Of a stretch of 64,000 bases of DNA, positions 25,141 through 64,000 are shown piece by piece. The position numbers were made by a program, and so were the translations under genes. Location of the stretch: assembly GCA_947625765.1 (NCBI GenBank), contig CANQPP010000001.1, forward strand, positions 7,763 through 71,762. The letters are read 5' to 3'. The stretch comes from an uncultured Clostridia bacterium (GTDB lineage Bacteria > Bacillota > Clostridia > Christensenellales > UBA1750). Each line of letters begins with the position of its first letter. Within the stretch, counting starts at the first letter, position 1. The notes below the pieces were generated by a model. That model ran no database searches, had not been told where the DNA came from, and saw nothing but the letters and a program-made list of their open reading frames with translations.

Positions 25141-25278
25141 GCCGACGCCTTCCCTTCTTGCTCTTGCCCGTTCAAGCGCTTTTAGCCGCCGTTTTGACCC
25201 CATCTATGACAGTTGCTTCTCCGACGGAGCGGACCCGCTTTCCTGCCCAGAGCTCCGGCGGGCTTTTGCGGAGGAACT

Positions 25279-25704: not shown

Positions 25705-25727
25705 GATATATGAAAAATTTTGTATTT

Positions 25728-25764
25728 CGGCGGCTTTGAGAGATCAGGCCGCCGTTTCCTTTTG
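25728..25764 (+). terminator. rho-independent terminator after the lipoprotein gene
   Basis: CGGCGGC (25728-25734) pairs with GCCGCCG (25748-25754), followed by TTTCCTTTTG. Confidence 0.65.
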
Positions 25765-25907
25765 TCCCCCAACATCCGCGAATGGCTTTTTTGGCACGGA
25801 CAGGCGGCGCAGCATGACGTACACATAGATAGCCCCGTCCTTTATGTGTTTGCTTTTTTGCCATTCTTCGTTAAAGAAATAACTATTCATTTACAAAGGG
25901 TCATTTA

Positions 25908-25936
25908 TTGTTTTTTGCCGCGCGTTGCAGTAGAAT
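25908..25936 (+). promoter_or_regulatory. putative promoter of the rnf operon
   Basis: TTGTTT (25908-25913), 17-nt spacer, TAGAAT (25931-25936), ~100 nt upstream of rnfC in an AT-rich spacer. Confidence 0.35.
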
Positions 25937-26037
25937 ATATATGTTTGTATGCCGTCCGCGCTTTGGCCCGCTGAAGGCCCGTTCCGCGGCGGCAGGTTCC
26001 CTTATTCCATTCTTCATATCAGTTGGGAGGCCGTGCC

Positions 26038-31090: not shown

Positions 31091-31114
31091 TCCTCCGCAT
31101 CCAACGAACCCGCC

Positions 31115-31153
31115 GAAGCCCCCGGCCAGCAAACGCCGAGGGCTTCTTCTTTT
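31115..31153 (+). terminator. probable terminator of the rnf operon
   Basis: GAAGCCC (31115-31121) pairs with GGGCTTC (31140-31146), an 18-nt loop, followed by TTCTTTT. Confidence 0.5.
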
Positions 31154-31154
31154 C

Positions 31155-31720
31155 CCCAAAAGCGCCTTCTTTTGGGCAATTCAAGCACACCGGAACCACC
31201 CAAAGCCCCGGCTTCCCTTTCCTTTCAAAGAAAAAACCCGGCCTTATACGGGAAAAGCGCCTCCCGCCTTCCATAGAAGAAAACCACCCGGCAGCGCTCT
31301 CTTCGTGAAAAGAACCACCTTTCCCGCTTTTCTTTTCAAAAAAAGGCCCTGACTTCATAAAAAACGACCCAGCCCTTATAGGAAAACCGTCTCCGCCTTC
31401 ATAAGAAAAAGTGGTGCGCCTTTATTAAAAGCCGCCCGGCGGCGCTCTCTTCGTGAAAAGAACCCCTTTCCCGCCTTTCTTTTCAAAAAAAGGCCCTGTC
31501 TTCATAAAAAACGACCCCGCCTTCACGGAAAAGCGCCCCTGCCTTCATCAGAAAACCGTCTCCACCTTCATCAAAAAAGCCACTCGCCTTCATCAAAAAG
31601 CCGCCCGGCGGCACTTTTTTCGTGAAACGAGCCGTCTTTCCATGACTTTCTATTGAAAAAAGCTCCTACTTTCAAAAAACGGCCCATCTCCGCAGAAAAA
31701 CCGCCTCCCTTCCGCGCACG
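31155..31720. repeat. non-coding array of degenerate 21-23 bp A-tract units nested in ~147-170 bp higher-order repeats
   Basis: The CTTCA(T/C) core sits at 31353, 31375 (CTTAT variant), 31397 and 31420 (CTTTAT). It recurs at 31500, 31521, 31543, 31566 and 31588, with spacings of 21-23 bp. The longer block CCCGGCRGC...TTCGTGAAA begins at 31287, 31435 and 31605. A ~50-nt near-identical segment (TTTCCCGC..TTTCAAAAAAAGGCCCTGNCTTCATAAAAAACGACCC) occurs at ~31320 and ~31467. Confidence 0.85.
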
Positions 31721-31721
31721 C

Positions 31722-31761
31722 AAAAGGAGCCGGGACGGCTGCGCGCCGCTCCGGCTCCTTT
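31722..31761. terminator. bidirectional terminator after proS
   Basis: GGAGCCGG (31726-31733) pairs with CCGGCTCC (31751-31758), flanked by AAAA (31722-31725) and TTT. On the minus strand the hairpin is followed by TTTT. Confidence 0.6.
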
Positions 31762-31787
31762 GTGGGTCTATATGGGAAGTTCGCTCC

Positions 31788-33533
31788 TTACAGGCGGCAG
31801 TCCAGCTTGGCCAGCTCGTCGCGGACCAGCTTCTCCACGAAGTCCGCGACCTCAGCCACGGCGGGCTTTTCCTGCAGGCTCTTGTCGCGCAGGGAGACCT
31901 CCAGCGCGCCGTTCTTCAGGGCGCGGGGGCTGACCACCACGCGCACGGGCACGCCCAGCAGGTCCGCGTCGGAGAACATGACGCCGGCGCTCACGGCGCG
32001 GTCGTCCAGGATCACCTCGATGCCGCGGCCTTCCAGCTCCTCGTAGAGGGCCTTGGCCGCCTGCGCCACCTCGGTCTGGTCGGCGCGCAGCACACAGATG
32101 TGCACCTGCCAGGGCGCGATGGAGATGGGCCAGATGGGGCCGTAGTCGTCGCGGCTGACCTCGCACACGGAGGCGGCCAGGCGGCCCAGCCCGATGCCGT
32201 AGCAGCCCATGATGGGCGTCTGCAGGCTGCCGTCCTGGGCCAGGTAGCGCATGTTCATGGGCTTTGTGTACTTATCGCCCAGCTGGAAGATGTTGCCCAC
32301 CTCGATGCCGCGCTTTAGGTCCAGGCTGTGCCTGCCGCACTCGGGGCAGACGCCGCCCTGCTTGGCCTTGGCAACGTCAACATAGCTGACCTCGCCCACG
32401 TCGCGCCGGATGTTGAACCCGGTGTAGTGGTAGTCCTTCTCGTTGGCGCCGGTGGTCAGGCACTCGATGCCCTGCAGGGAGCTGTCGAACACCACGGTCA
32501 CGTTCTGTGGCAGGCCCATGGGGCCGCAGAAGCCCAGCACCAGGGGCGCGTTCTCCTCGTCGTACACGGCGGGGTGCACCTCGCACCCCAGGTGGTTGCG
32601 CAGCTTGGTCTCGTTGACGTCCAGATCGCCGCGCACGAAGGCCACCACGGGGGTATCGTCCGCGTTGCGCTGGTACATGACGGCCTTGCAGGTCTGCTCG
32701 GGCGTAATGTGCAGGAGCGCACACAGCTCCTCGATGGTCTTGGTGCCCGGCGTGTGCACCTTCTGCAGGGGCTGCTCTTCGCCCGGCTCGTTCTGCGTCA
32801 CGCTGGGCGCGGCCTCCATGTTGGCGCGGTAGCCGCACTCGGGGCACAGGACGATGGTGTCCTCGCCCACGTCGGTCAGCAGCATGTATTCGTGGGAGAC
32901 CTTGCCGCCCATCATGCCCGAATCCGACGCTACGGCCACCACCTGCGGGATGCCCACGCGGGCGAAGATGCGGTTGTAGGCCTCATAGCAGCGGGCGTAA
33001 TAGGCCTCCAGATCCTCCTGGGAGGTGTGGAAGGAGTAGCCGTCCTTCATGGTGAACTCGCGCACGCGGATCAGGCCGCCGCGGGTGCGGGGCTCGTCGC
33101 GGAATTTGGTCTGGATCTGGTAGATCATGAAGGGGAACTGGGTATAGGAGTCGACCACGTCCCGCGCCAGGTGCACGGCGGCCTCCTCGTGGGTCATGCC
33201 CAGCACCATATCGCTGCCGCTGCGGTCCTTAAAGCGCAGCATCTCGCTGCCGATGGACTCATAGCGGCCGGACTCGCGCCACAGGCTGGCCGGCATCGCC
33301 ACGGGGAAGAGCACCTCCTGGCCGCCGATCCTGTCCATCTCCTCGCGCACGATGTTCTCGATCTTGCGGATCACGCGCTTTCCGGGTGTCAGCAGCGTGT
33401 AGATGCCGTTGCCCACGGCCTTGATGTAGCCGCCGCGGATCATCAGCGCCTGGCTCTGGATCTGGCAGTCGGCGGGCGTTTCCTTAAAGCGCCTGGAGAC
33501 CAGTTCGGAAAGATACATCGGGTTCTGACACAT
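31788..33533 (-). CDS. proS: proline--tRNA ligase (bacterial type, with INS editing domain)
   Basis: 581 aa. Class II aaRS motifs are present (FRDEPRTRGGLIRVREFTMKD, GCYGIGLGR) with an insertion domain between motifs 2 and 3. Start is ambiguous between ATG 33533 and ATG 33518 (MYLSEL...); neither has a good SD. Confidence 0.92.
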   Translation of the reverse strand: MCQNPMYLSELVSRRFKETPADCQIQSQALMIRGGYIKAVGNGIYTLLTPGKRVIRKIENIVREEMDRIGGQEVLFPVAMPASLWRESGRYESIGSEMLRFKDRSGSDMVLGMTHEEAAVHLARDVVDSYTQFPFMIYQIQTKFRDEPRTRGGLIRVREFTMKDGYSFHTSQEDLEAYYARCYEAYNRIFARVGIPQVVAVASDSGMMGGKVSHEYMLLTDVGEDTIVLCPECGYRANMEAAPSVTQNEPGEEQPLQKVHTPGTKTIEELCALLHITPEQTCKAVMYQRNADDTPVVAFVRGDLDVNETKLRNHLGCEVHPAVYDEENAPLVLGFCGPMGLPQNVTVVFDSSLQGIECLTTGANEKDYHYTGFNIRRDVGEVSYVDVAKAKQGGVCPECGRHSLDLKRGIEVGNIFQLGDKYTKPMNMRYLAQDGSLQTPIMGCYGIGLGRLAASVCEVSRDDYGPIWPISIAPWQVHICVLRADQTEVAQAAKALYEELEGRGIEVILDDRAVSAGVMFSDADLLGVPVRVVVSPRALKNGALEVSLRDKSLQEKPAVAEVADFVEKLVRDELAKLDCRL

Positions 33534-43993: not shown

Positions 43994-44280
43994 ATACCTT
44001 GCTTCCCCACCGTTTCGCGCGTCTCTATGTGTCTTTCGCGCTTTTTTCCTTTTAAGTTCTTTGTCGGTCCTTTGCCGGTCCTTTGCCGCAAAAAGAAGCG
44101 GCCCTACACGTTCAAGACCCGTTCCGGCTTGCTTCTCTCGCGCGGCCTTCGCCGCTATTGTACCACGAGCAAAAATGCTTGCTCGCAAGGGCATTTTTGC
44201 GAGGCCGTCAATGTCGAGCCTGTGGCGAAAGCCGCAGCAAAAGCGCAGCTTTTGGGCTTGCAAAGCAAGCCTGCGAGGAC
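43994..44280 (-). other. long (~280 nt) structured 5' leader of trkA-trkH; candidate cis-regulatory RNA of unknown class
   Basis: Hairpins CTCGCAA/TTGCGAG (44182-44203) and CGAGCAA/TTGCTCG (44166-44185) compete with a 10-bp alternative, GCAAAAATGC/GCATTTTTGC (44169-44200). Also present: hairpin GGCTTGC/GCAAGCC (44255-44271) and two perfect 11-nt tandem copies at 44065-44086. Confidence 0.4.
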
Positions 44281-44308
44281 ATTATATCATATCAAATTGA
44301 AATGTCCA
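44281..44308 (-). promoter_or_regulatory. putative promoter of the trkA-trkH leader
   Basis: Minus strand: TGGACA (44308..44303), 16-nt spacer, extended -10 TGATATAAT (44289..44281). Confidence 0.45.
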
Positions 44309-44354
44309 TAGCGTATTATTACTTTTTCATCAGGCGCTTATTTCACTTTATTGT

Positions 44355-44389
44355 GAGGAAAACGGCGCGTCCTGCAAGCAGGGCGCGCC
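44355..44389 (-). terminator. rho-independent terminator of the ABC-transporter operon
   Basis: GGCGCG(T)CCTGC pairs with GCAGG(G)CGCGCC (44364-44389). On the minus strand it is followed by GTTTTCC. Confidence 0.65.
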
Positions 44390-44427
44390 GCAAAAACGAA
44401 GCGATGTTTGCCTGTGCCGAACGGGGC

Positions 44428-45264
44428 TCAGCCCTTCACGCCGCCGGCCATGATGCCGTCCACGATGTAGCGCTGGCCGAACAGGTACGCGATGATCAGG
44501 GGCGCGGCCACGATGAACAGCGCCGCCGCCATCAGCGTCCAGTCGTTCTGGTACTGGCCCGTGAACACGAACAGGCCGCGGGTGATGGTGTAGTTGCTCT
44601 CCGAGGTCAGGTAAATGGTGGAGGACACGATGTCGTTCCAGATGCCGATCATGGTGAGCAGGCCCATGGACACCACGGCGGGCTTGGCCAGCGGCATCAC
44701 GCAGGTGAACATGTAGCGCATGTAGCCGCAGCCGTCGATGGAGGCCGCCTCGTCCAGGTCGCGGGGCAGGGAACGCAGATAGCCCGTGAAGAAGAACACG
44801 GATGTGGCGTTGACGCCCGTCATGATGAGCATATAGCCTATCTTCGTGTTGTACAGGCCGATGTTCAGTATGATCTGGAACAGAGGGATCGCGCCGGAGG
44901 GCAGGAACAGCCCGCAGAGGAACAGGTAATACCAGAAGTTGGAGAAGGGCACGTACTTCCTGGCGATGGGGAAGGCGATGAACATCGAGAGCACCAGCGA
45001 GGCCACGGTGCAGACCACCGTGTACAAAACGGAGTTCAGGATGTACTTATCGAAGCTGGCCCGCTGCCAGGCGACGATGTAGTTGCTGAACGCCCAGCTC
45101 CTGGTCAGGCCCGCCGGGTTGGTCACGTAGTCCTGGGCGGTCTTGATCGAGGTGTTGAACGAGAAGAACAGCGGGAACAGGTAGATCAGCAGGAAGATGA
45201 GCACCAGGATGTAGCTGAACACCTGGAAGGGGATGTTGGTCAGGCTGCCTTTCTTTTTCATCAC
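44428..45264 (-). CDS. carbohydrate ABC transporter permease (MalG-like)
   Basis: 278 aa, 6 predicted TM segments, EAA loop LDEAASIDGCGYMRYMFTCVMPLAKP. Confidence 0.88.
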   Translation of the reverse strand: MMKKKGSLTNIPFQVFSYILVLIFLLIYLFPLFFSFNTSIKTAQDYVTNPAGLTRSWAFSNYIVAWQRASFDKYILNSVLYTVVCTVASLVLSMFIAFPIARKYVPFSNFWYYLFLCGLFLPSGAIPLFQIILNIGLYNTKIGYMLIMTGVNATSVFFFTGYLRSLPRDLDEAASIDGCGYMRYMFTCVMPLAKPAVVSMGLLTMIGIWNDIVSSTIYLTSESNYTITRGLFVFTGQYQNDWTLMAAALFIVAAPLIIAYLFGQRYIVDGIMAGGVKG

Positions 45265-52806: not shown

Positions 52807-52933
52807 CCGCGACGCCTTCCCCTAAACGAACGGCACCCGCTGGAACCTCCTTCCAACGGATGCCTTCTTTCTTCCCGCTGATTCATTTAATGAAGAAAGC
52901 CCCTCGCCACTCAACCCCCTTCTATATAGAAAG

Positions 52934-52973
52934 AAAGCCCCCGCGCCACGCAGGGGCTTTCCTCGTTTTTTTT
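52934..52973 (+). terminator. rho-independent terminator after nnr
   Basis: AAAGCCCC (52934-52941) pairs with GGGGCTTT (52953-52960), followed by CCTCGTTTTTTTT. Confidence 0.65.
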
Positions 52974-52999
52974 CCGGCGGCCTTCTTTATAGCCGGGAT

Positions 53000-53401
53000 T
53001 CAGTTGAACTTCATGCTGTCCAGTTCGCTGTTAAACTCCTTGGTGACCTCCAGGATCGTCTTGTCCCCTTCGGCGTAGATCCTGTGTTCCTTCAGCAGGG
53101 GGAACTTCTCGCCCTTGAACTTCAGCACCATTTCCTCGGCCTCCTGCCGGGAGTTCAGCTCGAATGTCTCCGTGGTCTTGATGAGTTTTGCCATGGTCTC
53201 GCTCCTTTCCAAGCCCAGAAGATGGTCCGTGGTCACGCCGAAATAGACGGCCAGCTGGGGCAGCATGGACAGGTCCGGGGCGTTGACCCCGTTCTCCCAG
53301 CGGGAGACAGTCTGCACGGACACGCGCAGCGCAGCCGACAGCTCCTCCTGGGTGACCCCCCGTCTCTGCCTTAACTCCTTGATGGTCCTTCCGATCTCCA
53401 T
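53000..53401 (-). CDS. XRE-family HTH regulator with small C-terminal domain
   Basis: Trimmed to MEIGRTIKELRQRRGVTQEELSAALRVSVQTVSRWENG (ATG 53401, GGGAGG SD). Confidence 0.8.
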   Translation of the reverse strand: MEIGRTIKELRQRRGVTQEELSAALRVSVQTVSRWENGVNAPDLSMLPQLAVYFGVTTDHLLGLERSETMAKLIKTTETFELNSRQEAEEMVLKFKGEKFPLLKEHRIYAEGDKTILEVTKEFNSELDSMKFN

Positions 53402-53513
53402 GTGCGACCTCCCGGGCTTTGTATCCATAGCATAGCAAATGAACGCGCCACAGAACAGCGCGCGGAACGAGAGGCGGCTCAACATTGTTGTTAAGCCGCT
53501 TTTGGTCAAACCT

Positions 53514-54476
53514 CTATCGGCCGCCGCTCCCCTTGAGGCAAAATTCGAGAAACTCCCGCACCGCGCTGGCGTAGCGGCCCTCGTCCGCGATGAAGCTGAG
53601 GCCGTGGCCCGCGCCGGGGAAGGTCTCCAGGCGGCAGTACCCGCCGCAGGCCTGCGCGAGGCGGCGGCTCATCTCACAGGGCACCAGCCTATCGTCCTCC
53701 CCGTGGATGAGCAGCACGGGCAGCCTGGTGTTTTTGACCGCCTCCACGGCCGAGGCGGCGCGCAGGTCGAAGCCTCCATAAATCCGCGCGGCCAGCCGCA
53801 GGAGCCAGACCGTCGGCTTTACGGGCAGCTTCCACTGGCGGCAGGTCTCCCTCAGGATGTCCTCCGGCGCGCTGTACGGGCAGTCCGCGACCACGCCCGC
53901 GACCGTCTCCGGCAGGGGCAGCTCGGAGGCCATCAGCACGGTCGCCGCGCCCATGGAGACGCCGCACAGCACGATGGGCGTCCCCCTGCCGAAGCGCTCG
54001 AACGCATAGTCCGCCCAGGCCTTGCAGTCGAAACGCTCGCGGATGCCGAAGCTGATCGTCCGCCCGCCGCTGTGGCCGTGGGCGCGCTGGTCCACCACCA
54101 AGGTGTTGAAGCCGCCCTCCCGCGCCAGCTTGTTGCCGCCGCAGAAGTCGCGCACGGCGGTGCCCCGGTATCCGTGGATCTGGATCTGCAAAGGCGCGCC
54201 GTCCCTTACATGGTAGTAGCGGCCGCACAGCTCAACGCCGTCGAAGGCGCGGATGCGCACCTGCTCAAAGGGCAGCGCCGCCATCTCACGGATGAGCGCA
54301 CGCATTTTCTCGCCGTCCGCCTCGTACTGCTCTCCCTGGGGCAGGGCGAAGTCGTCGCCCACGTGGTCCTTGGGCGAGTAAAACGCGATCCTGTACGCAT
54401 AAAAGGCGGCCAGCGCCAGCACCGCAAGGAGCGCCAATAGCACGCCCACCGCCACCGCAAGGACCATCTTCTTCAA
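53514..54476 (-). CDS. membrane-anchored alpha/beta hydrolase
   Basis: 320 aa. N-terminal TM helix, nucleophile elbow GVSMGA, HGEDD, and a C-terminal GAGHG region. Confidence 0.85.
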   Translation of the reverse strand: MKKMVLAVAVGVLLALLAVLALAAFYAYRIAFYSPKDHVGDDFALPQGEQYEADGEKMRALIREMAALPFEQVRIRAFDGVELCGRYYHVRDGAPLQIQIHGYRGTAVRDFCGGNKLAREGGFNTLVVDQRAHGHSGGRTISFGIRERFDCKAWADYAFERFGRGTPIVLCGVSMGAATVLMASELPLPETVAGVVADCPYSAPEDILRETCRQWKLPVKPTVWLLRLAARIYGGFDLRAASAVEAVKNTRLPVLLIHGEDDRLVPCEMSRRLAQACGGYCRLETFPGAGHGLSFIADEGRYASAVREFLEFCLKGSGGR

Positions 54477-54509: not shown

Positions 54510-55001
54510 TTATTCTTCCCCGCGCACGAGTTCTATGGCCTGCTTGCCGCTCAAATGCTCGACAAAAAGCGCAAAGGCGCACAGGGCCGCCTTCCCGCGC
54601 TCGATCTCGCTGACGCGCTCTTCCTCGTGCCCCGGGCGGTACTTTTCCGCCAGCAGCGCCGCCGCCCGCAGCGCTTCCCCGCCCTCCAGCAGGCGAACCT
54701 TCCCAAAGGCGATGGCGCTGCGAAAGTAGGTGGTGTATTTTTCCGGCACCACCCTGTCCTCGTCCACCACGCAGAAGGAGGCCTTGTCGCAAAAACGCAT
54801 CGCGTCGATCTTGTGCCCCTCTCTCGCGCCGTGGAACAGGATGCGGCCGCCTGAATACACGTAGCTCAGCGGCACCGCGTAGGGGTAGCCGTCATCGCCC
54901 AGCAAGGCCAAAACGCCGTGGCTGCCCCGCTCGAGTATGTCCTCGGCCTGGGCCCTCGTTAGCGCCTGCCGAAAGCGCCGCATTTCCCGAAACACGCTCA
55001 T
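54510..55001 (-). CDS. pyridoxamine 5'-phosphate oxidase-family flavoprotein
   Basis: 163 aa. MREMRRFRQALTRAQAEDILERGSHGVLALLGDDGYPYAVPLSYVY is a typical split-barrel FMN-binding N-terminus. Confidence 0.7.
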   Translation of the reverse strand: MSVFREMRRFRQALTRAQAEDILERGSHGVLALLGDDGYPYAVPLSYVYSGGRILFHGAREGHKIDAMRFCDKASFCVVDEDRVVPEKYTTYFRSAIAFGKVRLLEGGEALRAAALLAEKYRPGHEEERVSEIERGKAALCAFALFVEHLSGKQAIELVRGEE

Positions 55002-55690
55002 TCTGCCTTCTCCCCGCTATCAAAGCGCAGGCCGGCCACCGCGTCCACCGGCAGGGAGAACACCAGCGAGTTCGCCTCGCTGGCCGGGCCCGCTTCCCGA
55101 AGGATGGCCTGCATGATCGCCCTGCGGTCCTCGCGCTTGGCCACGATCAATACCATTTCCTTCTCCGCCGCGATGGATACGCCGAAAAACCTGCGCGCCT
55201 GCTCCATGCCCGTGCCCTTGGCGTGCAGCACCGTGCCGCCCGTGGCCCCGGCCTGCCGGGCGGCGTCCATCACCTGCTCGTTGCAGCCTGTGTTGGCGAT
55301 CGTGACGATCAGCTCAAAGGGCGTTTCCTTCATTTCCGATCCCTCTTTGTTCTCCGTTTCGGTTTCTTCCCCGTCCAGCATGGAGCGCGCGCCCGCGCCG
55401 CCGATGCTCAAGATCGGGATGGCCCAGGCGATGCCCCTGCCCTCCGGCCCGGCGCTCAAGCGCAGCGCGAAGCGGCCCATCAGCCGCCGGGCCTTGCCGC
55501 CGCCCACCGCGGTCAGGACCAGCGCCTGCTCGGTGTTCTCCAGGCCCAGATAGCTGCGCATGGACGCCGTGGCCGTGCCCTGGCAGGGCAGGGAGAGCGT
55601 GACGCCCGCCTCCTGCTCCCGCAGGAAGCCGAGGAAGTCCTCGCAGCGGTCCCGGCTCGTGACGGCGGCCACCAGATGTGTGCCTTGCAT
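54998..55690 (-). CDS. protein with two tandem P-II-like domains
   Basis: 230 aa. Both halves (~1-100 and ~125-225) resemble the small P-II-like proteins that I recall accompanying DUF1538 genes (FELIVTIANTGCNEQVMDAARQAGATGGTVLHAKG...). They are joined by an acidic linker. Confidence 0.55.
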   Translation of the reverse strand: MQGTHLVAAVTSRDRCEDFLGFLREQEAGVTLSLPCQGTATASMRSYLGLENTEQALVLTAVGGGKARRLMGRFALRLSAGPEGRGIAWAIPILSIGGAGARSMLDGEETETENKEGSEMKETPFELIVTIANTGCNEQVMDAARQAGATGGTVLHAKGTGMEQARRFFGVSIAAEKEMVLIVAKREDRRAIMQAILREAGPASEANSLVFSLPVDAVAGLRFDSGEKAE

Positions 55691-55724: not shown

Positions 55725-56696
55725 CTAAAGCTCGATGATCTCCGTTTCCTCCGCCGGTTTGGGCGTCTGCTTGGCGGCGGGCTTCTGCTTCTTCAGCCTG
55801 TGCTGGTAGACCAGGCCCGTCAGCTGCACGGCGATGAGGGGCGTCATGGCCACCATCGCCACCACGCCGAAGGCGTCCGCGACGATGTTGCCGCCCACCG
55901 CCTCGCAGGCGCCCATGGCGAAGGGCAGCAGGAACGTGGCCGTCATGGTGCCGGAGGCCACGCCGCCGGAGTCGAAGGCGATGGAGGTGAAGATGGGCGG
56001 CACGAAGAAGCTCAAGGCAAGGGCGGCCGCGTAGCCCGGCACCAGGAACCACAGGGCGGAGATACCCGTGAGCACCCGCAGCATCGCCAGGCCTATGGAG
56101 ACGGCCACGCCGCAGGAGAGGCTGCGCTTCATGGCCCGCTGGGGGATGGCCCCGGAGCTGATCTCCTCCACCTGCCGGTTGAGCACGTGCACCGCGGGCT
56201 CGGCGGAGACGATGAAGTAGCCGATGGCCATGCCGACGGGGATGAGGAGCCAGCGGAAGGGCCGGCTGCCGATCTCCAGCCCCAGCCGGGTGCCCGCGGG
56301 CATAAAGCCCATGTTGGCCCCGGTCAGGAACAGGACCAGGCCCAGATAGGTATACAGAACGCCCACCAAAATGCGGATGAGCGGAGCGCGCTTTAGGCGC
56401 AGGGACGCGCATTGAAAGACCAGGAAGAAGGCCAGGATCGGCAGGACCGCCAGGGCCATCTCGCCCAAATACTTGGGCAGGCCGAACAGGAACAGGCGGG
56501 CCAGCGCCACGGTATCCCGCACCTCGGGCAGCTCCACGGGCAGGTACGCGCCCGCCGTGGAGGGGAAGATGAGTCCTAAGATCAGCACCGCCAGAACGGG
56601 CCCCACGGAGCAGAGCGCGATGAGGCCGAAGCTGTCCTGGGCGGCGTTCTTATCGCTGCGGATGGAGGAGATGCCAAGTCCCAAGGCCATGATAAA
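55725..56696 (-). pseudogene. 3' portion of a two-repeat DUF1538 membrane-protein gene, truncated by the mobile-element insertion
   Basis: The frame reads ...FIMALGLGISSIRSDKNAAQDSFGLIALCSVGPVLAVLILG (end of a first DUF1538 repeat), then a full second repeat (FDSGGVASGTMTATFLLPFAMG). Host-like sequence stops at ~56696. ~200 N-terminal codons are missing. Confidence 0.6.
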
Positions 56697-56708
56697 CCTA
56701 ATGTCAAG

Positions 56709-58313
56709 TCACAGGGCCAAAGTCTGACTTCCAATATTGCCTACGAACCTGTAGAAGATTTCTATCTCCTGCGTTTTGCCCCCGTTCGGGTTAGCGACCT
56801 TCTCATGTACGACAATCTTTTGGATAAGAGCCGTGAGCATCTCACGGGTGAGTTCTGTGGGGCGAGTATACTTCTTGAGCAACTTGATCCACTCTTCGGC
56901 GTTCTCAGTCTCATCCGTGGTTTTATAAAGCTGTTCTTTGAGTTTAGACACTTTCTCAGTGAGCGATGCTTGTTCCCCCTGGTATTTCCCCGTCAGTGTC
57001 TCAAATACACGTCCAGGGATTTTCCCGAACGATCTATCCTCATACACTTTGACGAACAAATCATCCAACTCGTCCAGCCTCTTTTCTGCCCGGCGCAGTT
57101 CTTCCTCTATCCTCCTTCGCTCAGACCTCTCGTTTCTCCTGTTGCTTCGTAGGATCATTTCTAGCATCTCATCCTCATCTTTTTGAACGATGGATGTGTA
57201 ATACTGCAAGCGCTTCAACACCAAGTCATAGATGGTATCATAAAGGATATAATGGGAAGGACATGGTTTGGTAATCTTGTTGGATTCACACATAAACCGC
57301 TTGCGGCCATTATTGGGCTTGTAGTGTAGATGATTACCACAGGTTGAACACACTAACATGCGAGAAAAAAGGTTTGGTTCGCCGCTCTTTAATTGCCGAT
57401 GTCGTCCTTCTATCAACTCTTGTACCAGATAAAATTCTTCTCTGGAAACAAGAGGTTCATGGGTATTCTCGACCGTCTGCCATTCAGATTTCGGCGCGCT
57501 TATGACCATAGGGGATTTGAAGGATGGCTTCTTGTACTTCCCATATACAGTATCGCCCATATATACGGGATTTCGGAGAATCCTCAAGACGGTTGACATA
57601 TCCCATTCAAACTTTTTTTCTTCGGAGATTCTAATTGTCCCCATTGGATAGAACCATCTAGGTATTGGAATCTGATTCTCCGCAAGAGTTCTAGCAATCG
57701 TCTTGCATCCATGGCCTTGCACTGCCAAACGAAACATTTTCTCTACGATCCAACTGTGTTCAGTGTCTACTAGAAGATGTCCTTTCTGCTCCGGGTCACG
57801 TTTGTAGCCAAGTGGCGGTGTCGTACAATAATATGCTCCTTTTCCCTTCCTTGTGGCGAGAGCGGACTTTACCTTCTTGCTCGTCTGCCGGGCTTGCATC
57901 TCGTTTAGGATATTCAAGAAAGGAGCGAGTTCATTATCCCCGGCCATTGTGTCCACGTTATCATTCACCGCGATGTAACGGACATTCTTGCTGGGAAAAT
58001 AAATCTCAGTGTACTGGCCTGTCATGATATAGTTTCGACCGAGGCGGGATAAGTCTTTCGTAATAACGCAATTGATCTTTCCTTCCTCGATATCCTCTAT
58101 CATCCTTTTGAAACCAGGACGGTTGAAATTAGTGCCAGACCAGCCATCATCTATATACTCATCGACTATGTTCATTCTATGCTCTTGGGCATACTCATTA
58201 AGTAACATCCGCTGAGTTTGGATACTAGCGCTATCCCCTTTTAGTTCGTCGTCTTTGCTTAGTCTCATATAAAGCGCCGTGTTGTAAACCTTTGCGATAG
58301 TGGGCTGTTTCAA
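56709..58313 (-). CDS. large serine recombinase (phage integrase type)
   Basis: N-terminal resolvase domain (ALYMRLSKDD...SIQTQR..., catalytic Ser context) followed by VITKDLSRLGRN, then recombinase and zinc-ribbon/coiled-coil domains (CSTCGNHL...C). I place the start at TTG 58313, 7 nt after AAAGGAGG. The ORF-track ATG at 58337 contains that SD. Confidence 0.9.
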   Translation of the reverse strand: MKQPTIAKVYNTALYMRLSKDDELKGDSASIQTQRMLLNEYAQEHRMNIVDEYIDDGWSGTNFNRPGFKRMIEDIEEGKINCVITKDLSRLGRNYIMTGQYTEIYFPSKNVRYIAVNDNVDTMAGDNELAPFLNILNEMQARQTSKKVKSALATRKGKGAYYCTTPPLGYKRDPEQKGHLLVDTEHSWIVEKMFRLAVQGHGCKTIARTLAENQIPIPRWFYPMGTIRISEEKKFEWDMSTVLRILRNPVYMGDTVYGKYKKPSFKSPMVISAPKSEWQTVENTHEPLVSREEFYLVQELIEGRHRQLKSGEPNLFSRMLVCSTCGNHLHYKPNNGRKRFMCESNKITKPCPSHYILYDTIYDLVLKRLQYYTSIVQKDEDEMLEMILRSNRRNERSERRRIEEELRRAEKRLDELDDLFVKVYEDRSFGKIPGRVFETLTGKYQGEQASLTEKVSKLKEQLYKTTDETENAEEWIKLLKKYTRPTELTREMLTALIQKIVVHEKVANPNGGKTQEIEIFYRFVGNIGSQTLAL

Positions 58314-58335
58314 GATGTGCCTCCTTTCATATAAC

Positions 58336-58396
58336 AACCCACGCTTACAGTGCTTTTGCTACGGGCAATTATACCATAAGCGTGGTTTCATCTCAA
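58336..58396 (-). promoter_or_regulatory. integrase promoter embedded in a 12-bp inverted repeat
   Basis: Minus strand: TTGAGA (58396..58391), 17-nt spacer, extended -10 TGGTATAAT (58376..58368). IR arms AACCCACGCTTA (58336-58347) and TAAGCGTGGTTT (58377-58388), one mismatch, bracket the -10. Confidence 0.5.
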
Positions 58397-58405
58397 GTAT
58401 TATTC

Positions 58406-58546
58406 TTAATTTAAATCAGCGCTCTCACTAATGATGCTCTGGACAATCAATTCACCAAGAGTGGTCTTTTCATCTTCAAGGAAATGCTCTACTAGCTTGA
58501 TCTCAACGTCCCCGCGCCGCTTATTCTTGTGACCGCCATTATTCAT
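58406..58546 (-). CDS. possible 46-aa ORF overlapping the phage dut stop
   Basis: Not in the ORF track (too short). ATG 58546..58544 overlaps the dut stop (ATGAATAA). It reads MNNGGHKNKRRGDVEIKLVEHFLEDEKTTLGELIVQSIISESADLN*. No homology recognised. Confidence 0.3.
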   Translation of the reverse strand: MNNGGHKNKRRGDVEIKLVEHFLEDEKTTLGELIVQSIISESADLN

Positions 58547-59009
58547 TCGTGCTGCCAAAACCACCCGTTCTATTAGCGTTAATTGTGTCAGTAGAATCGC
58601 CGTCTAAGTACGAGACGAATATCCCTTGGGCGACCCTTTCTCCGGCCTTAATATCAACAGGATTCTTACCGTAATTATGTAAGCAAATGCCAATATTTCC
58701 GCCGTTATCTTCGTTCATGAAGTAGTCCTTGTCAATCACTCCAACGGTGTTGGCAAGCATCAGATTACGCCTAATACCGATACTGCTGCGCACGAAGATG
58801 AGAAGCACATCATGTTCGCCGTTCATGTAGGATGCAACGTCAGTCCAGATGAGATGGCTCTTGCCGGGTTCAATCGTGACATCGATCGGGCAGAAGAAGT
58901 CATACCCCGCGCTATACTTACTGCCTTTCACAGGGAGCTTGATTTCAGCCCCCTTATTTTTTACGAACTTCTCAGGAACCTTCACGAACCCTCTTTGAGA
59001 TGTTGCCAA
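58539..59009 (-). CDS. dut: dUTP diphosphatase (element-encoded copy)
   Basis: Motifs SAGYDF, RSSIG, VGVIDKDYF...NGGNIG and GGFGSTN. I place the start at TTG 59009, 7 nt after GGAGGAG, giving M-ATSQRGFVKV, parallel to host MRGFERV. Confidence 0.8.
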   Translation of the reverse strand: MATSQRGFVKVPEKFVKNKGAEIKLPVKGSKYSAGYDFFCPIDVTIEPGKSHLIWTDVASYMNGEHDVLLIFVRSSIGIRRNLMLANTVGVIDKDYFMNEDNGGNIGICLHNYGKNPVDIKAGERVAQGIFVSYLDGDSTDTINANRTGGFGSTNE

Positions 59010-59013
59010 TCTA

Positions 59014-59205
59014 TCACTCCTCCACATTCTTGTAGTACAGGCCACAATGACACCAGCCGCTCTTGTTCATCATTAAGAACTCGTCGCACACGCACTTGTT
59101 CTCTGGCAGATGTTCCACCTTGCACGGGCAGTACCCGTCGTTCTCCTTAATGGCCTTTCTAATCTCTGCCGCCTTTTCCACGTCCTCGTTCACCTTAAAC
59201 CGCAT
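59014..59205 (-). CDS. ferredoxin-thioredoxin-reductase catalytic-subunit-like small Cys-rich protein
   Basis: 63 aa. ...ENDGYCPCKVEHLPENKCVCDEFLMMNKSGWCHCGLYY carries a CPC...CxC...CHC arrangement, like the FTR catalytic chain / short bacterial FTR-like proteins as I remember them. Confidence 0.55.
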   Translation of the reverse strand: MRFKVNEDVEKAAEIRKAIKENDGYCPCKVEHLPENKCVCDEFLMMNKSGWCHCGLYYKNVEE

Positions 59206-59675
59206 TAGAGAACCTCCTTGATTGTGCCGGGGCGATAGCCATCAATAGCTCTCTGAACCAAGTATTCGTTCATTGCAATCTTTAGCCTGTAGTAGGCAAT
59301 TCTCTCGCCTGTATATAAATTGAACTCATCCTCGGGACTACACTTTGCGATACCAACCCAATCATCTAATACTGCCTTCACAATGTGCCCGTCAGTGTAG
59401 ATGGAGGCAATCAACGGATCACTATCCATCCTAACCTTGTGGACAAAGTGCATAGGCTCCTCCCGCTGGAGAATGACGCAGTTCTTCATGAAGAAGTCGA
59501 GGTCGAAGATACCAGTTCCGATGTCAGGCTTCGCATTCAACTTGCTCGGAACAGTGAACAAGATGAATCCATCTCTAGTTACTTCCTTGACGATGCCTGC
59601 TCTCCCCTTGAGTTTCTCAACGGGAGCATTCTTAATCTCGAATTGGACACCGGGGACAATCAAATCTGGACGCAT
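59205..59675 (-). CDS. hypothetical phage protein
   Basis: 156 aa, coding-like composition, in operon context. No family recognised (C-terminal ...GIAKCSPEDEFNLYTGERIAYYRLKIAM). Confidence 0.5.
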   Translation of the reverse strand: MRPDLIVPGVQFEIKNAPVEKLKGRAGIVKEVTRDGFILFTVPSKLNAKPDIGTGIFDLDFFMKNCVILQREEPMHFVHKVRMDSDPLIASIYTDGHIVKAVLDDWVGIAKCSPEDEFNLYTGERIAYYRLKIAMNEYLVQRAIDGYRPGTIKEVL

Positions 59676-59684
59676 AGTTCCTCC

Positions 59685-60806
59685 TTACGCCGCTACGGGC
59701 AAAGTCTTTAAGTAGTTCTCGTACCCTGCCAATGATCTTCTATCCATAAAATCTAAGTCTTGATTAAAAGCTCTCTTGGCCTGTACAACTTTGTTGTTTC
59801 TGATTTCTAGCGTAATATAACTCTTGTCAGGCGATGCCTTGTCACGCATGAATACGATGTGGCACTTGCCTTCGAGAACGAGGTTGATGTAGCTGGCAAC
59901 GCAGTTGTTCTGCTGCACGGCCTCGTCCTTAATATCCTGCGTAGAACGCGGATACCGCCAAACAAACCTGCCGTCGCTCCATTCATAGGCCGGGTTCACT
60001 TTAGACGCAAACTCTCTTTCATCGAACTCCTTCATCAATCTCTCGTAGCTCCTAACCATGATGCGCTCGGTAGTAAGCAAGTTTCTCGGATACTTATCGT
60101 ACTTCTCGCTGATTTTAGAGGCCATTCTTAGATAGTCTTTCCAACAATCAAGAAGTCCGTTTATTGCCAACGCTTCATATGTCATGATTTTATCGACGTA
60201 GGTGAACAGAGCTGAGTTAGAGATGTGGTAGGCATTTTTTATTACTAAAAATAAGTTGCCGTACCGATGTCCATCATGAATATCCCAATAGACCGCATGG
60301 CGAAACACGCCCAATAAATCTTTTGGGGTTAGGCTTTGCCATTCATGGTAGAAAGCGTACTGCATCATGTCGGGGTCTTTCATGTATTCGTCGTATAGGT
60401 TCTGATCCAGCTTAATATCAAAGTCCCGGCAGATTTTTAGAAGCCCTTTTGGAACATCAGACGATGGGAGGCGAAACTTGAGTGATACGTTTACACCCAT
60501 GGCGAAGAATTGCTCGGCGTAAGGATACCACTTGGCTCTATCTAGTAACGATCCGAAGTTTATCAGGGAAAATGACTGTTCGTCATAAACAGCGGTAAGA
60601 AACACTCTATACCTTGGCTCTTGTATCTTCTCCAAAAGGCTAGGAATGCTTTCTCCATGGAGTTGCGCACGCAAATCCTTGACAGGTTTTCCGCGCTTGC
60701 CTATTGTTTCTCTCGTCGAGAGATTGTACTTGACCGTGCTACCATCTTCCAAGTAAAAGGTAAACAGCGGGCCATCCTTCACTATTTTCTCTACCGTGGG
60801 GTTCAC
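59685..60806 (-). CDS. PcfJ-like domain protein
   Basis: 373 aa, GTG start. C-terminal ...YPRNLLTTERIMVRSYERL...DEAVQQNNCVASYINLVLEGKCHIVFMRDKASPDKSYITLEIRNNKVVQAKRAFNQD matches my recollection of the PcfJ-like domain. Confidence 0.55.
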   Translation of the reverse strand: MNPTVEKIVKDGPLFTFYLEDGSTVKYNLSTRETIGKRGKPVKDLRAQLHGESIPSLLEKIQEPRYRVFLTAVYDEQSFSLINFGSLLDRAKWYPYAEQFFAMGVNVSLKFRLPSSDVPKGLLKICRDFDIKLDQNLYDEYMKDPDMMQYAFYHEWQSLTPKDLLGVFRHAVYWDIHDGHRYGNLFLVIKNAYHISNSALFTYVDKIMTYEALAINGLLDCWKDYLRMASKISEKYDKYPRNLLTTERIMVRSYERLMKEFDEREFASKVNPAYEWSDGRFVWRYPRSTQDIKDEAVQQNNCVASYINLVLEGKCHIVFMRDKASPDKSYITLEIRNNKVVQAKRAFNQDLDFMDRRSLAGYENYLKTLPVAA

Positions 60807-60829
60807 CGCCTTTGTTTCTTGATGCTAAC

Positions 60830-60856
60830 ACTATACCATCTCAAACCTAGTTGCAA
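60830..60856 (-). promoter_or_regulatory. possible internal promoter upstream of the PcfJ-like gene
   Basis: Minus strand: TTGCAA (60856..60851), 15-nt spacer, extended -10 TGGTATAGT (60838..60830). Confidence 0.35.
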
Positions 60857-60864
60857 CAATAGTT

Positions 60865-60908
60865 TTTGAAAAAAATATATAATTAAGGAGGGGCTAATGC
60901 CCCTCCTT
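60865..60908 (-). terminator. rho-independent terminator after nrdG
   Basis: Perfect 10-bp stem, AAGGAGGGGC (60885-60894) with GCCCCTCCTT (60899-60908), TAAT loop. On the minus strand it is followed by AATTATATATTTTTTT. Confidence 0.65.
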
Positions 60909-60909
60909 T

Positions 60910-61557
60910 TTATTCCTCTTCAATCTCGTCTTTCGAGACGAAAGGATGAACTTCATAGGGCGTTGACTTCTTGTAAATGCGGCGCAGATACCGTATGTAT
61001 GATTCGCACACCTCGAAGGCAGACTCTGGTAAGAGTGGGTACTTTACTGAACGAATCTGGTTGAACCCTTTGTCGTATGAGACCGCGTAGTGGATGGCGT
61101 TCAGCATATCCGTTATCATTTCCGGGCTGTACTTCACGCCCAGAACTTCTTTAACCAGTTCCCCATCCTCTTTATCCGGCAAGAGCAAGTGGTACGGCAG
61201 CTTCATATCGACGTGGAAACCATCTACTAGCCCCATATCCATGAGCCACACCATCTCGTTTGGATGCGTACCATTGGTATAAATGATGATGATACCGCCG
61301 GGCGGGAGGTGACTACGGATTTCCCGTAGATCACTCTCCACATCCCTTATATCTCCTTGCAGATACTCGTCCCCGGAGAGGACTACGCAATCTACAAGGT
61401 CTTTATTCAACTCAATGTACTTCGTCACATCGTCTATGCTGTATGAGACAATGCCCGGCTCATGCAACATATCCCGATTGAGACATTGGTAGCAGTTGAG
61501 GTTGCATCCAGTGAGCGCATGTACTATAAGTGCCCTACGTCCGGCTATTTCCGACAT
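60910..61557 (-). CDS. nrdG: anaerobic ribonucleotide reductase activating enzyme (radical SAM)
   Basis: 215 aa. CNLNCYQC (CxxxCxxC) is near the N-terminus. The gene lies immediately downstream of nrdD. Confidence 0.8.
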   Translation of the reverse strand: MSEIAGRRALIVHALTGCNLNCYQCLNRDMLHEPGIVSYSIDDVTKYIELNKDLVDCVVLSGDEYLQGDIRDVESDLREIRSHLPPGGIIIIYTNGTHPNEMVWLMDMGLVDGFHVDMKLPYHLLLPDKEDGELVKEVLGVKYSPEMITDMLNAIHYAVSYDKGFNQIRSVKYPLLPESAFEVCESYIRYLRRIYKKSTPYEVHPFVSKDEIEEE

Positions 61558-61583
61558 GGATATAGATAGCCGTGGGTAGTATC

Positions 61584-63416
61584 TTATAATTCTGTGTCCG
61601 CCTCCTTCATCTTCCTGCGGGATGCCCAGTCGATGCGCCGTGCTGCCGCCCAGAAGTTGTGCTCTCCCGCGTACTTGCCTTCCTTCTCATGGATGCGCTT
61701 GCGGGCAATCATCCTTACGTAGCCGATAACGCGGGAGAACGTAGCGAGATCATCACTTCCGCAGTACGGGCACTTGTCGAGATTCTTTGCATCCGTAGCG
61801 ACAATCTTCTCGCCGCAGGTCATGCAAGAGGTCAATGTAGGAGTAATGGTGATGTAGTTGATGGGCTTCTCAAACAGCTTATCAATGTACTTCGCCAACA
61901 CTTCGGGTTCAAGCACCTCTTCGAGGAAGTGGTGCAGAATAGAGCCAGACGTAGCATAGCCCTGGAACTCTGCCGCGTTCTCGATCTGCTGTAAGAAATC
62001 AGCCTCGCTGAACGGAACCATGCACCCAGATGTCAGGAACACATCGTCGCCCTTGCCCTGCACAAAGATTTCGCGGCCATGCTCCTTCGCCCACTTCACA
62101 TCGCTGCGGGCCAGCTTGATACCAGCGTTCTCGGCGGGCGCATACTCGATGCCGCAGGCTACCTTGTCCTTCTCGATAATCTCATCGACCACGCTGGACA
62201 TATATTGCATGAGATCGTGGGCTACCATCTTGCCTTCCGGGTCGATCATGCCCTTCTTATAGCCAGCGTTGATAAGCCCTTCGTGCATGCCCGTTACGGC
62301 AAACACGTTGAAGTAGTTCCTTAAGTCGGAGTTATAGGAGAAGAACGTGGGGTAAAGCTCCTTGTGCGCTTCGATCCAGCGGCGCTTCGCCATGTGCCCC
62401 TTCTCCATGATCCAGAAGATTTCATGAATCCTCTTCTTCATGGCCTCGTAGTCTCGCCCGTACTCCAGGAACATCCTATCCATGTTGAGGTTCAGCACCT
62501 GTACCGCGCCAGTATTGCCGACGGAAGAGCCGAAAATACCGCTGCCAACCTTCTGGAGCAGGTCAAGGGGAATCTGCAAGCGGCAGCATAGAGATCGAGA
62601 CACAGCGGGGTCTTTCGCTTTGATTTTTGGATTCAGGGCGCGATAATACTCGTTATCGAATGCCTTCGTCTTGAAGTTCTCAAAGTAGCAGCCGCCGAAG
62701 TAGTAAATCTTCTCCAGCAGGTACAGGAACAGCTTGTTGTGGTAATTGAAATCATCGTCGATCTGGACAGTGATGAGCGGGAACGTGAACGGGATGCCCG
62801 TGCTGCTCCCCTCTGCCATTACGTCGATGATGGCCTTGTTGATGCGGTCGAAGTATTCGCCGGGAATATCCTTATAGGTGTAGTCCAGCACCTCGCCGCC
62901 GACGACCACAAGCTCGTCCTTGATTTCCTCGGAGGGCTTACCGAACTCAAGTGTGACGTTAGAGAAAGCACTTTCAGAGCCAGACCGCAGGGGGAGATTC
63001 AGCTCATAGATGAAGGACTTGAACATCTTCTTGAGTTCGTGTTCGGAGTAGTCCACGCCGTGAGTATTCTCATAGTACAGGTATGATGCCGCGATGGTAG
63101 TCATTTGAGACAACATAACAGCGCCGGAGACCTGTTGAGACATGAGCGTCACGATATTGGAGAAATGGCGGAGCAGGATGCGCAATGACGCGGCGGGTTC
63201 AGAAGCAATCATGTTCTGAGCCAAGGTGGGGATGCCGATGGTAGCAACGTCCTTGCAGGACACGGACTGGCAGTAGGAAGAAAGCTGTTTGTCATGGATG
63301 TAGACAACGCCCTGCTCGTAAAGATCGACTAACTCTTTGGGAAACACATGCGTCATAAGGTATTCTTCTTCCGCCTTATTGCACAGGTTCTTGCGCATAA
63401 GGGAGAGAGAATACAC
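61584..63416 (-). CDS. nrdD: anaerobic (class III) ribonucleoside-triphosphate reductase
   Basis: C-terminal zinc ribbon CMTCGEKI...CPYCGS followed by the glycyl-radical motif SRVIGYVR. The N-terminal ...VVYIHD... region resembles NrdD. The ORF-track start is a GTG, and coding-like sequence continues in frame up to 63518 with no start codon (see findings). Confidence 0.9.
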   Translation of the reverse strand: MYSLSLMRKNLCNKAEEEYLMTHVFPKELVDLYEQGVVYIHDKQLSSYCQSVSCKDVATIGIPTLAQNMIASEPAASLRILLRHFSNIVTLMSQQVSGAVMLSQMTTIAASYLYYENTHGVDYSEHELKKMFKSFIYELNLPLRSGSESAFSNVTLEFGKPSEEIKDELVVVGGEVLDYTYKDIPGEYFDRINKAIIDVMAEGSSTGIPFTFPLITVQIDDDFNYHNKLFLYLLEKIYYFGGCYFENFKTKAFDNEYYRALNPKIKAKDPAVSRSLCCRLQIPLDLLQKVGSGIFGSSVGNTGAVQVLNLNMDRMFLEYGRDYEAMKKRIHEIFWIMEKGHMAKRRWIEAHKELYPTFFSYNSDLRNYFNVFAVTGMHEGLINAGYKKGMIDPEGKMVAHDLMQYMSSVVDEIIEKDKVACGIEYAPAENAGIKLARSDVKWAKEHGREIFVQGKGDDVFLTSGCMVPFSEADFLQQIENAAEFQGYATSGSILHHFLEEVLEPEVLAKYIDKLFEKPINYITITPTLTSCMTCGEKIVATDAKNLDKCPYCGSDDLATFSRVIGYVRMIARKRIHEKEGKYAGEHNFWAAARRIDWASRRKMKEADTEL

Positions 63417-63530
63417 AAAGTTACTGTTCTCCCGCTTTAGGTAGTCAGACTTCCAGTCCTGTTCGTTGCCTACGAATTTGTCAATTAGTGAGTTTGTGTC
63501 ATGAAATACTGCGATAGGTCAACACTTCCT

Positions 63531-63728
63531 TCAATAGTTTTCACGGAGATACTTGATAGCCTGCTCGAAGCTAAAGAACTTCTCTCCGTCTCTTAGTACA
63601 GGCACGGTACTGATGCCCATAGCTTTCAACGCTTCAATGTCGCTTTCCACCTGGAACGAGATGTTGTGCTTCTGTAGCTCCTTTTCAAGGAGTTTGCACT
63701 TTGGGCAACCCGTGCTATAGATCGTCAT
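63531..63728 (-). CDS. NrdH/glutaredoxin-like redoxin
   Basis: 65 aa. MTIYSTGCPKCKLLEKEL... carries a CPxC active site plus TVPVL (cis-Pro loop). AGGAGGTG SD. Confidence 0.75.
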   Translation of the reverse strand: MTIYSTGCPKCKLLEKELQKHNISFQVESDIEALKAMGISTVPVLRDGEKFFSFEQAIKYLRENY

Positions 63729-63744
63729 ATAGCATCACCTCCTT

Positions 63745-64000
63745 TCAGTCCGCCTTGGTGCGCGGACTACCGCAACTCATTGGCCCCTCCGGGCACGGCC
63801 CAGCCACGCACGGCGCGCCTGCATTAGCGAACAGACGGGGAGCTACCTGCTTGCACTGTTTAAGCATCTCGTCGGCAACAGCGCGAATCTCCCATTGTGC
63901 CCGGTTACAGCACCGCAGACGGAAGAAATTATGCAGGGAGCGCACATTCATCGTGACGATGAGCTGTGTAGAGCAGGCGTTAGGAAGAACATACCTGGAA
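63745..64000 (-). CDS. thyX: flavin-dependent thymidylate synthase ThyX, C-terminal part (5' end outside window)
   Basis: The frame stays open to the window edge: ...[48 protein letters not shown]... The window begins at the S-x-R-Y end of the ThyX signature. The N.R.L.HF..LR....AQ.EIR segment is typical of ThyX. Confidence 0.7.

Follow-up and report, generated by a model that had tools for sequence, protein, structure and literature searches.

The prophage SPbeta in spsM of Bacillus subtilis, with its proteins SprA and SprB (PMC4191935, PMC5499854), together with the intervening elements skin in sigK (with SpoIVCA in B. subtilis; for the C. difficile skin, PMC5025042), gin in gerE (PMC5595907) and yin in yabG (PMC10747680), are the closest described systems for the locus here presented. 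Regarding the gene concerned, the only characterised system of DUF1538 proteins is UmpAB of Halomonas zhaodongensis, a two-component Na+(Li+,K+)/H+ antiporter (PMC5484666), both halves of which are needed for full antiporter activity, single subunits having given partial tolerance (PMC5484666). The locus lies in a stretch of 64,000 nucleotides (hereafter the window) of contig CANQPP010000001.1, from an uncultured Clostridia bacterium, where the gene for a large serine recombinase (LSR) and the element that it bounds abut a truncated gene for a DUF1538 membrane protein. We consider it probable that a phage, or a phage-like element, was integrated by its own LSR into this gene, a fused two-repeat DUF1538 transporter gene.

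At the junction, the recombinase gene ends in a TGA stop codon (56711-56709, minus strand) and homology to DUF1538 proteins begins 12 nt further on, in the same frame, at F-I-M-A-L-G (56696). The intervening 12 nt, CTTGACATTAGG (56697-56708, minus strand), are element-derived, constitute the inner end of the element-side attachment (att) arm and translate as L-D-I-R. The in-frame codons across the junction read L-D-I-R-F-I-M-A-L-G, those of the host starting with TTT ATC ATG GCC TTG GGA, and in the alignment L-D-I-R occupies the position held by M-T-V-P in every homologue. If read as an integration, the order is the 3' end of the recombinase gene, an element arm of ~33 nt (a six-codon extension of the recombinase and its stop codon included), the crossover and the host right arm, one hybrid att site being present in the window. 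As in intervening elements, a coding sequence is interrupted, homology being found from residue 202 of ~520 directly after element DNA. An earlier note, made from the letters alone, had described an LSR element abutting a DUF1538 gene truncated within its first repeat, a recombinase stop 12 nt from host sequence, and just four extra codons upstream of the apparent gene before the recombinase TGA at 56711-56709 is reached; all its statements at the level of the sequence were reproduced here.

The junction is genuine and recurs in a separate metagenome assembly. A contig of 1749 nt from the ENA metagenomes (L031, sample ERZ27249483) matches the window without a single difference over its whole length, which takes in the entire recombinase gene, the intervening 12 nt and, of the host arm, 25 nt, further pieces of the element being found as short contigs in ERZ27249483 and ERZ27249481. 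An assembly chimera, in which a phage contig was wrongly joined to a host contig in a metagenome-assembled genome, could be suspected from the abrupt change in composition and from the source being probably a metagenome-derived contig. However, the identical junction in the separately assembled ENA contig, as well as a break that falls exactly at a codon boundary beside the 3' end of the integrase gene, the location of the att site in this recombinase family, make such an artefact very improbable indeed.

Beyond the junction lies what is left, at the 3' end, of a membrane-protein gene of UmpAB type with two fused DUF1538 repeats (55725-56696, minus strand; Pfam DUF1538, E=1.9e-84). This remnant retains the whole of repeat 2, preceded by the linker and by the final ~45 residues of repeat 1. 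One complete Pfam DUF1538 domain (profile positions 1-211) is found at remnant residues 91-300, with a second, partial stretch before it; two complete DUF1538 halves are not present, and the gene is a fragment within the window. An internal Met at 56690 opens an open reading frame (ORF) of 321 aa (55725-56690, minus strand), whose homologue set was formed by the best 120 database matches, one of them being the ORF itself. The remnant is 62-72% identical to DUF1538 homologues over its full length. Since all the other listed homologues (119 of 119) are 485-546 aa long and the alignment with the closest full-length relative (P0003, 530 aa) begins exactly at its F202, ~201 codons are missing, in good agreement with the ~200 N-terminal codons of the earlier note, whose view of the ORF as the tail of one repeat followed by a complete second one, and not as a gene start, is borne out by both Pfam and the alignment. 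The break lies within the motif FDSGGVTTGPMTVP|FIMALG (GPMTVP|FIMALG), which is invariant in 14 of 14 aligned full-length proteins.

It has also to be considered that the 321-aa ORF might be a genuine single-subunit (UmpB-like) DUF1538 gene, the element merely lying upstream. Two-gene DUF1538 systems do exist (UmpA/UmpB, PMC5484666; L039/L050), and the ATG of the ORF is preceded by AGG 6 nt upstream. Nonetheless, homology to repeat 1 extends 45 residues further upstream than repeat 2 and breaks off abruptly amid the most conserved motif of the family, while the first gene of the natural two-gene forms (L039, L050) ends ~57 residues later, after the last helix of repeat 1. In addition, a natural start at the residue equivalent to 56690, which the earlier note had proposed to look for, is seen in 0 of the 119 listed homologues. 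A naturally short gene is, hence, scarcely credible. NCBIfam scores of the remnant for UmpA and UmpB are 89 and 80 bits, far below the respective equivalog cutoffs of 490 and 500.

The sharp fall in G+C that had been described near ~56697 was also reproduced. When calculated over 300 nt at a time, G+C is 0.64-0.71 over 55850-56599, 0.62 at 56450-56749, 0.53 at 56600-56899 and 0.43-0.48 over 56750-58549, so that the low level (0.43-0.48) is reached at most 150 nt from the junction; from there to position 64000, values remain within 0.41-0.57. On the host side, the 56 kb show ~0.6-0.75, typically ~0.66 versus ~0.45-0.50 for the element, and G+C at third codon positions (GC3) is 0.91 for host genes and 0.60 for element genes. 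This gap of ~20 points is large for a resident prophage, and suggests a recent arrival from a host of lower G+C.

The LSR gene (56709-58313, minus strand; database form P0241) encodes 534 aa from a TTG start at 58313, with AGGAGG upstream, the enclosing ORF running from 58337 to 56709 on the minus strand. Pfam detects in 56709-58337 the families Resolvase (PF00239, E=3.3e-24), Recombinase (PF07508, E=1.5e-23), Zn_ribbon_recom (PF13408, E=5.3e-08) and DUF4368 (PF14287, E=7e-21). The protein thus displays the N-terminal resolvase catalytic domain and the C-terminal recombinase domain and zinc ribbon of an LSR, as well as a Y-M-R-L-S motif with the candidate catalytic Ser19. Its PHROG match is the integrase family phrog_95 (E=1.6e-99), and its best PDB match the catalytic domain of TnpX (2mhc, E=3e-35). 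The nearest relative is 53% identical, and within a set of 5.8 billion protein clusters the recombinase forms a singleton. At the C-terminus it has six codons more than its relatives (SQTLAL), and 33 nt separate the last family-conserved codon from the junction.

Its kin form a 540-aa DUF4368-bearing LSR family of gut Bacillota elements (P0242-P0360; IMG/VR loci L001-L016). Relatives at 51-53% identity end in ...RFIGKID-stop, followed by a conserved tail of 44-45 nt (e.g. ...ATATCTTTAACTAAGGGAAACGGG), past which loci with the same recombinase subtype diverge completely (L001, L007, L014; L002, L003, L005). A conserved tail followed by divergent flanks indicates that the integrase genes of this family lie directly at the end of their elements, and the architecture of the window, with its distance of 33 nt, likewise fits an att arm that directly follows the 3' end of the integrase gene. 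The ~45-nt tails and flanks of L001-L016 look like a readable set of att junctions for the family. Several flanks of these loci carry an inverted …TTTCCCGG-like motif. DUF1538 was found beside the recombinase in none of 30 IMG/VR relatives.

Regarding the position of the crossover, the interval that holds the crossover dinucleotide is 56676-56698 (minus strand), its upper bound being the start of host homology and its lower one a soft limit set by codon usage. The earlier note had placed the crossover within 56697-56711 or inside the recombinase gene, which does not hold above 56698: whatever lies on the host side of a crossover has to be host DNA, yet no T-V-P is encoded by 56699-56708, and the crossover is accordingly to be sought at or below ~56698. 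As for the lower limit, the consecutive codons TTG, GGA and CTT at 56676-56686 show conditional frequencies of 0.09, 0.06 and 0.04 in host genes versus 0.20, 0.19 and 0.17 in element genes, and the cumulative host-versus-phage log-likelihood ratio of codon usage is lowest after the CTT at 56678-56676, these three codons contributing ~30-fold. On this modest evidence, element-derived sequence may extend ~20 nt into the apparent host ORF.

The junction is, moreover, straddled by a 19-nt direct repeat. Its element-side copy, TGGCCCTGTGACTTGACAT (19 nt; 56701-56719, minus strand), overlaps the last three recombinase codons and the stop, and its host-side copy, TGGCCTTGGGACTTGGCAT (19 nt; 56671-56689, minus strand), covers the codons M-A-L-G-L-G-I. 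Both copies match at 16 of 19 positions, lie 30 nt apart and are in frame with each other (LAL*LDI versus MALGLGI), a score reached in 0 of 3000 shuffles. Dyad symmetry between element arm and host arm was also looked for by eye, but the best inverted 19-mer matches at 12 of 19 positions against 16 of 19 for the direct one, leaving a half-site model unsupported. The element arm may mimic part of its target. A more far-reaching proposal starts from the direct repeat and from the phage-like codons TTG-GGA-CTT near the edge of the remnant, namely that the att arm of the element carries a short in-frame mimic of the host coding sequence, that the recombinase targets a near-invariant GPMTVPFIMALG-coding landing site in distant Bacillota, and that insertion could act as a reversible on/off switch of a DUF1538/P-II ion-transport operon, a combination that we regard as distinctly unlikely. 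In line with such a landing site, two short metagenome contigs of other hosts have breaks no more than 3 nt from this position.

According to the preferred reading, that of integration by the element's own LSR, a temperate phage or phage-like element of lower G+C would have entered the host genome and integrated between the Pro201 and Phe202 codons of GPMTVP|FIMALG, or else within ~20 nt downstream of that point. As a result, ~201 codons at the 5' end, along with the native promoter, would have been parted from the remnant and from the P-II-like gene that follows it. The 5' half would be preserved intact at the far end of the element, and precise excision by the recombinase together with a directionality factor would make the gene whole again. 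Meanwhile, since UmpAB requires both its halves for full activity, the transporter would most likely be inactive in the lysogen. A loss of the native promoter for the remnant and for the genes downstream is plausible. A sigma-70-like promoter (TTGAGA, 17 nt, TG, TATAAT; 11/12) is predicted, by consensus match only, at 58368-58396 (minus strand), 55 nt upstream of the recombinase start, and no convincing terminator was found between this site (58396-58368) and the remnant, so that transcription may read through from the element.

The closest uninterrupted locus, L119, serves for the comparison with related loci that the earlier note had proposed, and the host flank has the same gene order. It contains a divergent TetR gene, DUF1538 (530 aa), a 230-aa P-II-like gene 22 nt on, further genes and a convergent YjeF-ACPS-S58 block. 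The window holds, in the order of L119, homologues of P-II (57% identity), YjeF (71%), ACPS and S58, the pairing of DUF1538 with the 230-aa P-II gene being kept in L119. On the contrary, the L119 genes upstream of DUF1538 have no homologue in the window. Downstream synteny combined with absence of the upstream genes is what an upstream flank situated on the far side of the element would produce.

The visible part of the element upstream of the recombinase (58406-64000, minus strand; G+C 0.41-0.57), as delimited by Pfam, PHROGs and composition, has all its genes co-oriented with that of the recombinase. They comprise, all on the minus strand, a 52-aa ORF with no family match (58406-58564), a dUTPase (58539-59045; Pfam/PHROG), small ORFs at 59014-59205 and 59205-59675, a PcfJ-like protein (59685-60806; phrog_9653), an NrdG-like radical-SAM protein (60910-61557), NrdD (61584-63416; Pfam/PHROG), a thioredoxin-domain protein (63531-63728) and the 3' part of ThyX (63745 to beyond 64000). 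PHROG matches across the element are to integrase, dUTPase, NrdD, the thioredoxin-domain family, ThyX and phrog_9653. As judged from its gene content, this cargo is a typical phage nucleotide-metabolism module, and a block of atypical composition that is bounded by an integrase and carries phage genes is likely a prophage. Neither IMG/VR nor the GenBank phages yielded a close relative of the phage.

Several observations weigh against the preferred reading: (i) tblastn with three full-length relatives found no DUF1538 5' fragment elsewhere in the 64-kb window; (ii) a protein search with residues 1-201 of P0003 found no fragment from the source contig among its 120 best matches, a weak negative, as a fragment could rank just below them; (iii) no N-terminal fragment broken after GPMTV was found in 185,579 species-representative genomes, a result that is uninformative if the genome is absent from the set or if the arm has a G at that point; (iv) the 19-nt direct repeat is not predicted by a simple insertion model, nor is it the dyad expected of serine-integrase half-sites; and (v) no virion structural, packaging or lysis genes occur in the visible 7.3 kb of the element, which bears on whether it is a phage or another integrative element. 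The proteins listed in the search with the N-terminal half were all at most 352 aa long. The genomes were scanned with a DNA pattern that codes for GGVTTGPMTV followed by non-G where Gly207 is expected, and its 17 matches, considered as broken fragments, all proved to be intact natural variants with Cys, Ser or Tyr at the Gly207 position. Of the short N-terminal fragments encountered, P0223 is a plain frameshift and several others are sequencing-adapter read-throughs.

That no 5' fragment was recovered by any route would also be accounted for by a decayed or rearranged insertion, in which the 5' half or the far att site has since been lost and a fixed pseudogene remains beside a stranded element that is unable to rebuild the gene. 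Moreover, recombinase and remnant are both singletons (the remnant likewise among 5.8 billion protein clusters), so that population evidence of mobility is lacking. Nonetheless, the recombinase ORF is intact and of full length relative to its kin, and the remnant ORF, devoid of frameshifts and stops, keeps the residues that are invariant across aligned homologues, which argues for a recent event. Considering also that the negative 5' searches are weak, decay of the insertion is held to be unlikely, and LSR-mediated integration remains the preferred reading.

Other insertions at the same site were sought as well. The mirror pattern for C-terminal fragments gave 63 matches in the metagenome contig collection but no junction, nearly all of them corresponding to the natural GPVTVP variant of a common gut organism and the rest to frameshifts. 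This variant of DUF1538, with Val for the otherwise invariant Met198, is common in metagenome contigs (L054-L116), many of them labelled human gut. Neither of the junction patterns, nor the DUF1538 profile, found anything in IMG/VR. Two short ENA contigs from other hosts show comparable breaks. In L032 (870-957), which comes from a host of 42% G+C, the N-terminal part of a DUF1538 protein breaks as GPMTVP|SACQ... and unrelated DNA follows, with an opposite-strand ORF whose TGA stop lies exactly at the break and a TTGACA 5-6 nt away; the element side of this contig was not found in IMG/VR or among GenBank phages. The window, too, has a TTGACA, 4-5 nt away from its junction. In L036 (1850-1931), the break GPMTV|AMLMQ... 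occurs 3 nt earlier, again followed by unrelated DNA. Both contigs may represent other insertions at the same site or else assembly chimeras.

A further reading is that the insertion works as a regulated gene switch (active lysogeny), in which conditional excision through a controlled directionality factor would rebuild the DUF1538 and P-II operon, as described for SPbeta/spsM and skin/sigK. The architecture is that of the known cases, with an LSR element inside an ORF and an intact recombinase, and published precedents are available (PMC4191935, PMC5499854, PMC5025042, PMC5595907). On the contrary, there is no sign of excised forms, no directionality factor is recognisable in the visible element, and DUF1538 is not a known sporulation gene. 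Domesticated switches, furthermore, tend to be lineage-conserved, and no such junction was found in the 185,579 species genomes, IMG/VR or the metagenome contigs; the 20-point mismatch in G+C is, in turn, suggestive of a recent arrival and not of a co-evolved partner. A regulated switch is, thus, very unlikely.

On the host side, the remnant is followed by co-oriented genes on the minus strand for a P-II-like protein of 230 aa (54998-55690), a Nim/PNPOx-like protein (54510-55001), an alpha/beta hydrolase (53514-54476) and a helix-turn-helix (HTH) protein (53000-53509), the identities of the first three (tandem P-II-like, PNPOx-like and hydrolase) being those assigned in the earlier note. The product of 54510-55001 scores 181 bits with NCBIfam NimIJ and 164 bits with NimABCDEF (5-nitroimidazole reductase/resistance), below the equivalog cutoffs of 270 and 260. 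Around the HTH gene, which encodes an RstR/Xre-type protein of 169 aa from a TTG start and closes the co-oriented run, G+C falls to 0.53-0.61 (52850-53600), a segment that may be another small foreign insert. Three more 1-kb segments of low G+C (0.53-0.58) occur in host DNA, at 25001-26000, 31001-32000 and 44001-45000.

Comparison with known systems starts within the recombinase's own family. With the 540-aa DUF4368-bearing LSRs it shares the domain order, 51-53% identity and an integrase gene that abuts the element end, while it differs in the sequence of that end (…CTTTAACTAAGGGAAACGGG in the family) and in the six-codon C-terminal extension that its kin lack. Among clostridial LSRs, TnpX (Tn4451) and TndX (Tn5397) are related, the catalytic domain of TnpX being the best match of solved structure. 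The C-terminal DUF4368 domain is also shared with the TnpX/TndX group, for which target sites resemble the element joint. Nevertheless, TnpX and TndX move (conjugative) transposons, whereas the element in the window has phage-type nucleotide-metabolism cargo and no visible transfer genes. As for the target, it belongs to the same Pfam family as UmpAB and has likewise two homologous halves, but these are here fused into a single gene of ~520 aa that is followed by a P-II-like gene, and the NCBIfam scores lie below the UmpA and UmpB cutoffs. No report of a DUF1538 transporter paired with a P-II-like protein as an integration target was found in the literature searched.

Skin, gin and yin resemble the present case in that an LSR-bearing element splits a gene. 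However, they are domesticated, lineage-conserved and tied to mother-cell development, whereas the element in the window is a singleton, carries ordinary phage cargo and differs strongly from its host in G+C. SPbeta in spsM is likewise an LSR prophage within a protein-coding gene, with its integrase gene beside one att site, and excision would here likewise be expected to rebuild the ORF. It differs in that the target here is a membrane transporter and not a sporulation or envelope gene, in that no SprB-like directionality factor was identified in the window, and in that SprA (YokA, PDB 9dxh) matches the recombinase only weakly (E=2.5e-13). The lysogen is probably without its DUF1538 transporter, and nothing yet suggests that this loss is regulated. 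For those who catalogue serine integrases and att sites, the locus offers a recombinase that is a singleton, at most 53% identical to anything known, with one att half defined to ~20 nt. It adds one more serine-integrase prophage landing inside a conserved gene, the same kind of event as SPbeta, skin, gin and yin, in a new target.

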